Shown here in pieces: positions 11,722 through 11,890 of a DNA stretch of 64,000 nt (positions are counted from its first letter, which is position 1; every line of letters starts with the position of its first letter). Location: assembly GCF_003334335.1 (NCBI RefSeq), contig NZ_QOWQ01000018.1, one strand, 5' to 3'. A program made the translations under genes and the position numbers. The stretch comes from Escherichia coli. Lineage in GTDB: Bacteria; Pseudomonadota; Gammaproteobacteria; Enterobacterales; Enterobacteriaceae. The notes below the pieces were generated by a model. It worked only from the letters and a program-made list of their open reading frames with translations. It did not search any database and was not told the origin of the DNA.

Positions 11722-11890
11722 AAAGAAAAAGGCAGCCTGTGGTTGCCTTTTGCCAATAATTCGCACACATTGCGGGTTACTGCTTTATTTTCGTTCAGTG
11801 CTGATAACAAACATCAACCTGCAAAACGAAGCGCATAGTTTAAAATGGCTATCATCAATACGCTATATCTGATGGAAAAAAATATGCCTA
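11722..11890 (-). ncRNA. sraB: Candidate small RNA in the yceF-yceD intergenic region (position of K-12 SraB); ends approximate
   Basis: Minus-strand hairpin 11729..11749 followed by a T-run, ending ~37 nt upstream of yceD; K-12 is remembered to carry SraB here. The 5' end was set by the remembered ~169-nt length, not seen in sequence. Confidence 0.4.

Follow-up and report, generated by a model that had tools for sequence, protein, structure and literature searches.

The conserved feature on the minus strand directly upstream of yceD is sraB, a small RNA gene already known from Escherichia coli K-12. Taking the evidence jointly, it is very probable that this gene ends at the intrinsic terminator at 11751..11727, that its main RNA has a likely length of about 109 nt, and that this RNA is bound by ProQ and most likely acts in trans. 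Positions refer to the window, which is the whole stretch of 64,000 nt of E. coli DNA that was analysed (contig NZ_QOWQ01000018.1). Feature coordinates are collected in Table 1.

Identity and genomic context

Positions 9000-15000 were scanned with Rfam. The minus strand at 11890..11722 was matched to RF00077 (SraB) over the complete model (1-169 of 169) with 210.6 bits (E = 4.4e-45); the gathering score of this family is 130 bits. A previous sequence-only reading had proposed a probable small RNA at the SraB position, and the full-length match at exactly 11722-11890 bears this out. That reading had also placed sraB between yceF and yceD in K-12, correctly so. In MG1655 (NC_000913.3), the ncRNA sraB (b4418) is annotated at 1146589..1146757 (+) on the yceD strand, flanked by yceF (1146011..1146595, -) and yceD (1146794..1147315, +). 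Alignment of the 169 nt of the window to K-12 sraB gave 100% identity. Gene order and strands agreed, as did the distance to yceD (36 nt) and the overlap with yceF (7 nt); in both, sraB is on the yceD strand. Identity, position and strand of the gene are thus direct observations, as are its structure and conservation described below. In the literature, SraB also appears under the aliases PsrD and pke2.

Of 5426 complete E. coli genomes, 5425 carry the 401-nt stretch 11600..12000, many of them at 100% identity. The RefSeq E. coli genomes among the matches listed have no feature annotated over sraB, whereas the curated K-12 record has one. Because sraB is missing from the annotation of these genomes, annotation-free scans will flag the locus repeatedly, which also accounts for its having caught attention in the bare sequence. 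In K-12, the gene has been annotated since 2001.

Other Rfam matches were treated separately. A plus-strand match to BASRCI337 (E = 0.21) and matches to snoRNA families were regarded as chance. The RNase E 5' UTR element (RF00040) was found at full length upstream of rne (13751-14087, +; 260 bits). Between yceF and rluC, a REP-like palindrome (12476-12548, both strands) reached 54 bits with naRNA4 (RF02564), the gathering score of which is 59.5.

Table 1. Coordinates of sraB and adjoining features in the window
Feature	Position	Strand	Basis or remark
sraB, K-12 boundaries, 169 nt	11722..11890	-	Rfam full-length match and 100% identity to b4418
Probable main transcript, ~109 nt (hairpin 2, hairpin 3, terminator)	11722..11830	-	Start as given in PMC7967276; conserved -10
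Hairpin 2, part of 56-nt lineage-specific insertion	11790..11830	-	Escherichia, presumed Salmonella and Citrobacter only
Hairpin 3, inner stem CGCA/UGCG at 11774..11762	11756..11780	-	Rfam structure, folding
Intrinsic terminator hairpin; A-rich 5' flank (AAAA) pairs with first U residues	11727..11751	-	Folding, Rfam structure
End of U-tail (UCUUU)	11722..11726	-	Motif CCTTTTTCT in 12 of 13 taxa; Buttiauxella CCATTTTCT
-10 TAAACT of downstream sraB start	11837..11842	-	6-7 nt upstream of 11830
ATAGCG at -35 position of downstream sraB promoter	11861..11866	-	Invariant in 14 of 14 taxa
-10 TAAAAT of annotated sraB start (11890)	11896..11901	-	Inside yceF CDS
yceF start codon, 194-aa product; overlapped by annotated SraB 5' end	11884..11886	+	Window ORFs, K-12 annotation
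yceD promoter to start codon	11683..11723	-	Promoter scan: -35 TTGACT 11723..11718, 17-bp spacer, -10 TAATAT 11700..11695, GCGCGCCCT, ATG 11685

Terminator and 3' end

On the minus strand, 11751..11727 reads AAAAGGCA-A-CC-ACA-GG-C-TGCCTTTT (i.e. AAAAGGCAACCACAGGCTGCCTTTT) and is followed by TCTTT at 11726..11722. The structure has a stem of 10 bp with a single A/C mismatch, a loop of 3 nt and, behind these, 8 U in 9 nt. With its G+C-containing stem-loop and the directly adjoining U-run, the segment 11751..11722 constitutes an intrinsic (Rho-independent) terminator. The hairpin previously placed at 11729-11749 on the minus strand is the core of this structure. Its distance from the yceD start had been estimated at about 37 nt, in agreement with the 36 nt counted from the SraB 3' end (11722) to the yceD ATG (11685).

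The terminator had further been called strong. Hairpin and U-run are both present, but the adjective was generous: folded by itself, the hairpin had an energy of -11.6 kcal/mol with z = -1.76, and 14 of 200 shuffled sequences were equally stable. As a bare fold, the SraB terminator is unremarkable. That the feature is real was judged from homology and not from fold energy. A consensus terminator scan of the window did not list the SraB terminator, probably because its rules permit no interior mismatch. In the comparison of Enterobacterales described below, the terminator hairpin and U-tail were kept in all 14 taxa while the inner-stem sequences varied. The flanks read AAAG...CCTTTTTCT in every taxon (in Buttiauxella, CCATTTTCT).

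Transcript start and promoter elements

Evidence for a discrete transcript and for its start was taken from the literature, where SraB is given sizes of 169, about 105-109 and, in Salmonella, 99 nt. According to PMC7967276, the RNA-seq data of Thomason 2015 and Ettwiller 2016 contain a reproducible sraB start some 60 bp downstream of the annotated 5' end (1146589), and a product of ~105 nt was reported by Argaman 2001. For the Salmonella homologue, a length of 99 nt was expected (PMC7967276). In window coordinates, the downstream start corresponds to ~11830 and yields an RNA of ~109 nt.

The comparison of 14 Enterobacterales taxa agrees with the downstream start, because its -10 element is kept and that of the annotated start is lost in presumed Salmonella. 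TTAAAC was invariant in all sequences of alignment A2 (9/9), and TTAAAC[T/C] was present in 14/14 taxa. For the annotated start, the presumed Salmonella loci carry AAGGAT and the presumed Klebsiella locus GAGGAT in place of TAAAAT. A start near 11830 and a length of ~109 nt are most likely for the main SraB species, and the annotated 5' boundary of sraB is probably wrong for this species. In the comparison, the first 60 nt of annotated SraB look less like a structured RNA than like a divergent promoter region shared by the two genes. ATAGCG (11861-11866, -) matches poorly both to a -35 of sraB and, on the opposite strand, to a -10 of yceF. It may be a factor-binding site common to the divergent sraB and yceF promoters.

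Rfam helix 1 (SraB nt 18-21 with 37-40) was considered as support for the long form and dismissed, as the pairing is not kept in other taxa. Between E. coli and presumed Salmonella, this helix differs by a single A-U to C-G swap.

The start of yceF was also inspected. In K-12, the gene starts with ATG 11884 and encodes 194 aa. The longest yceF ORF (11845-12468, +) starts with ATG 11845 and encodes 207 aa, and this start is used by some gene callers (L122, L132, L141). The 207-aa call would cross 46 nt of annotated sraB. A promoter scan of the window found no plus-strand promoter for yceF.

Comparative analysis

Loci for comparison were obtained via exact-protein look-ups of L32, ACP and YceD homologues. 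In addition, the 15-base pattern CCCGCNATGTGNGCGAA was searched against a 298 Gb genome collection. This search gave 120 matches, almost all of them chance, and three useful loci (L022, L031, L057). Taxon labels were partly inferred: L124-type loci are referred to as presumed Salmonella and L137-type loci as presumed Klebsiella, and L152-L159 were named after the protein clusters that retrieved them. The comparison consisted of alignments A1 and A2 (A2 with 9 sequences) and of per-taxon folds, and covered 14 Enterobacterales taxa.

Escherichia, presumed Salmonella and Citrobacter have a yceF-yceD spacer of 198 nt. It is shorter in the others, with 160 nt in Dickeya and ~141 nt in presumed Klebsiella, Cronobacter, Buttiauxella, Erwinia, Pantoea, Pectobacterium, Ewingella and Rahnella. 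The difference corresponds to SraB nt 61-116 (window 11775-11830, -), a segment of 56 nt that contains hairpin 2. This insertion was absent from 9 taxa (L137 and L142-L159 among the loci compared). The short-spacer loci scored 70 bits with the Rfam SraB model, which is below the gathering score, so that RF00077 misses the shorter ancestral form. On this comparison, the order-wide conserved unit is ~53 nt long, with one 5' hairpin and the terminator, and the 56-nt hairpin 2 segment is a later insertion.

Within the insertion, hairpin 2 was variable, yet its pairing was kept, with 4-6 pairs altered on both sides (7 sequences). When the Rfam SraB structure was imposed on 7 sequences over the stretch 11722..11830, 93.5% of the cells were paired versus 34-45% with slid partners; as the sequences represent 3 clades, this result is supportive, not strong. 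Hairpin 2 is also the most polymorphic part of SraB within E. coli. A repeated or mobile element was ruled out as its origin by the presence of one copy per E. coli genome.

The inner stem of hairpin 3 was found in all taxa. In Dickeya, Pectobacterium, Ewingella and Rahnella, it reads CGCU/AGCG, a compensatory change from A-U to U-A. The loop of this hairpin is AUGUG in E. coli; in L154-L159, which are outside the Enterobacteriaceae, GGA is found in or near the loop (CUGGA, GUGGA, UUGGAUG). Speculatively, such a GGA loop might be likened to a CsrA-binding hairpin.

ProQ binding and expression

ProQ binding and the expression behaviour of SraB were likewise taken from published work. [quoted passage not shown] The ProQ-RNA complex is 1:1, and HDX and SAXS were performed with SraB, which touches all three regions of ProQ (PMC5393179). 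These experiments were done on 169-nt SraB (PMC5393179), a form that may differ from the main cellular species. SraB is also listed among validated ProQ targets (PMC6156199).

What the FinO domain of ProQ recognises is a terminator hairpin with 2 bp or more, followed by an oligoU tail of 4 or longer; an A-rich 5' flank, which disfavours Hfq, is over-represented among ProQ ligands (PMC7367173). All three features are present in the SraB terminator (CAAAAGGCA...UGCCUUUUUCUUU). The A-rich flank was AAAAGG, GAAAGG or GAAAGA in all taxa compared. Since SraB carries the features of a ProQ ligand and its binding to ProQ is published, a ProQ-bound, trans-acting RNA is the favoured reading. Action in trans we can only infer, by analogy.

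In the mechanism proposed here, sraB would be transcribed independently on the minus strand, with its main start near 11830. Transcription would stop at the intrinsic terminator, formed by hairpin 11751..11727 and the U-tail to 11722. The product would be a three-hairpin RNA that is bound and stabilised by ProQ via the terminator features, and ProQ-bound SraB would then act in trans on its targets.

Other ProQ-associated RNAs (SibA, IstR, cspE 3' UTR, malM 3' UTR) are, like SraB, structured and terminator-ended, with an A-rich flank and at least 4 U. SibA and IstR differ from SraB in being antitoxin antisense RNAs with known partners. Compared to the cspE 3' UTR, SraB is longer and additionally engages the linker and C-terminal domain of ProQ (PMC5393179). 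With RF00077/b4418, the gene in the window is the same in every respect compared (sequence, flanking genes, strand, spacing). The annotated 169-nt bounds, however, probably exceed the main RNA, and the order-wide core is only ~53 nt.

SraB is repressed more than 4-fold by ppGpp in Salmonella (PMC3963941). PMC11228462 tabulates small RNA genes whose expression differed upon replication inhibition and gives a value of 5.1 for sraB. In Klebsiella, the SraB level was down 4.5-fold without Hfq (PMC3136514); SraB may therefore depend on more than ProQ alone. PMC7967276 and PMC3963941 cite a link of SraB to egg-albumen resistance of S. Enteritidis (Jiang 2010). In the publications consulted, this was the sole phenotype cited for SraB, and neither a target nor a phenotype in E. 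coli was found.

yceD promoter

The promoter predicted for yceD adjoins the SraB terminator directly, and its -35 TTGACT shares 11723..11722 with the last two bases of annotated SraB. The 41-nt block from promoter to start codon was 88-100% identical across 13 taxa; the third-codon positions of yceD were 43-80% identical. As the block from U-tail to ATG is nearly invariant, the SraB terminator has remained linked to the yceD promoter across the whole order Enterobacterales. yceD has been described as having no 5' leader (PMC4378010), and its -10-to-ATG spacing permits a leader of at most a few nt. A leaderless mRNA accords with the GC-rich discriminator and the near-zero leader. This promoter might also be under stringent control. 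For yceD, PMC13060810 records two promoters, p1 and p2.

Alternative explanations

The annotated 5' end raises the possibility that SraB is a cis-antisense regulator of yceF, the 5' part of which pairs with the yceF translation start region. The sequence-only reading had suggested such antisense interplay on the basis of a ~169-nt form overlapping the yceF start. For the annotated form the overlap is real: it covers 7 nt of the yceF CDS and would span the whole yceF 5' UTR. Moreover, sraB is regarded as a classic member of the divergently transcribed overlapping ncRNAs in the study that defines this class, and in contrast to the abundant SraB, transcription of yceF can hardly be detected (PMC7967276). 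As in the oxyS-oxyR type, sraB and yceF are divergent and have overlapping promoter regions. With the downstream sraB start, however, the transcribed overlap with the yceF CDS vanishes. This start, as given in PMC7967276, is ~60 bp downstream and past the yceF start codon, the -10 TAAAAT of the annotated start is missing from the presumed Salmonella and Klebsiella loci, and the activity of yceF P2 does not affect transcription of sraB (PMC7967276). The main species stops short of the yceF start codon, so antisense overlap is confined to a minor or doubtful long form. Overlap with the yceF 5' UTR is possible only if yceF starts within the sraB body. The suggested interplay is hence not supported for the main species, and we consider antisense regulation of yceF very unlikely. 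Still less credible is a coding function. A 13-codon ATG...TGA frame within annotated SraB (11836..11795) corresponds to the peptide MRFVLQVDVCYQH and has equal length in the presumed Salmonella and Citrobacter loci (hand translation, alignment A1), but its length is kept in these three genera because the hairpin there has no indels. The frame lacks a Shine-Dalgarno sequence, is shortened or missing in the 9 taxa without hairpin 2, and its residues are unconserved beyond the stem-forming bases. Its ATG (11836) lies before the start at ~11830 that RNA-seq indicates (PMC7967276). With no ribosome-binding site, an ATG outside the main RNA and a frame confined to three genera, a small-protein gene inside SraB was rejected, and it is extremely improbable that the transcript encodes this peptide.

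More serious is the idea that sraB acts mainly in cis on yceD-rpmF, either by a terminator that insulates the promoter or by termination and read-through that tune expression, with the RNA as a by-product. The shared strand, the short distance between the SraB 3' end and the yceD ATG, and the overlap of the yceD -35 with the annotated SraB 3' end are in keeping with such a role. So is the near invariance from U-tail to ATG while yceD third-codon identity drops to 43%, and one of the two recorded yceD promoters, p1 and p2, could be the sraB promoter. On the other hand, yceD owns a conserved, consensus-like promoter past the terminator and has been described as leaderless (PMC4378010), so that sraB transcription is not needed. 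SraB RNA is also abundant (PMC7967276) and specifically bound by ProQ (PMC5393179). The compensatory changes that preserve pairing in hairpins 2 and 3 argue for selection on the RNA and not on the DNA alone. A predominant cis role is thus judged unlikely, although it could be compatible with a simultaneous role in trans. The ProQ-bound, trans-acting RNA of ~109 nt is preferred.

Significance

The sraB locus has little discovery value, as it already has an Rfam family of its own. What remains of use is the correction of the boundaries and the comparative picture. The boundaries matter, since they bear both on the idea of yceF antisense regulation and on structural work with the 169-nt form.

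A wider reading, to which we assign a similarly low probability as to a predominant cis role, would take as the selected unit an ancestral ~53-nt module, consisting of a 5' hairpin and a ProQ-type terminator and joined across the Enterobacterales to the leaderless yceD-rpmF promoter and its GC-rich discriminator. The 56-nt insertion would have been acquired later in Escherichia, Salmonella and Citrobacter. Transcription and termination of sraB would tune this ribosome and lipid-synthesis operon in cis, through interference or promoter insulation that responds to growth phase or ppGpp, and any trans role would be additional. The ~53-nt core, the lineage-specific hairpin and the junction of terminator and yceD promoter together provide a testable cis hypothesis for SraB.
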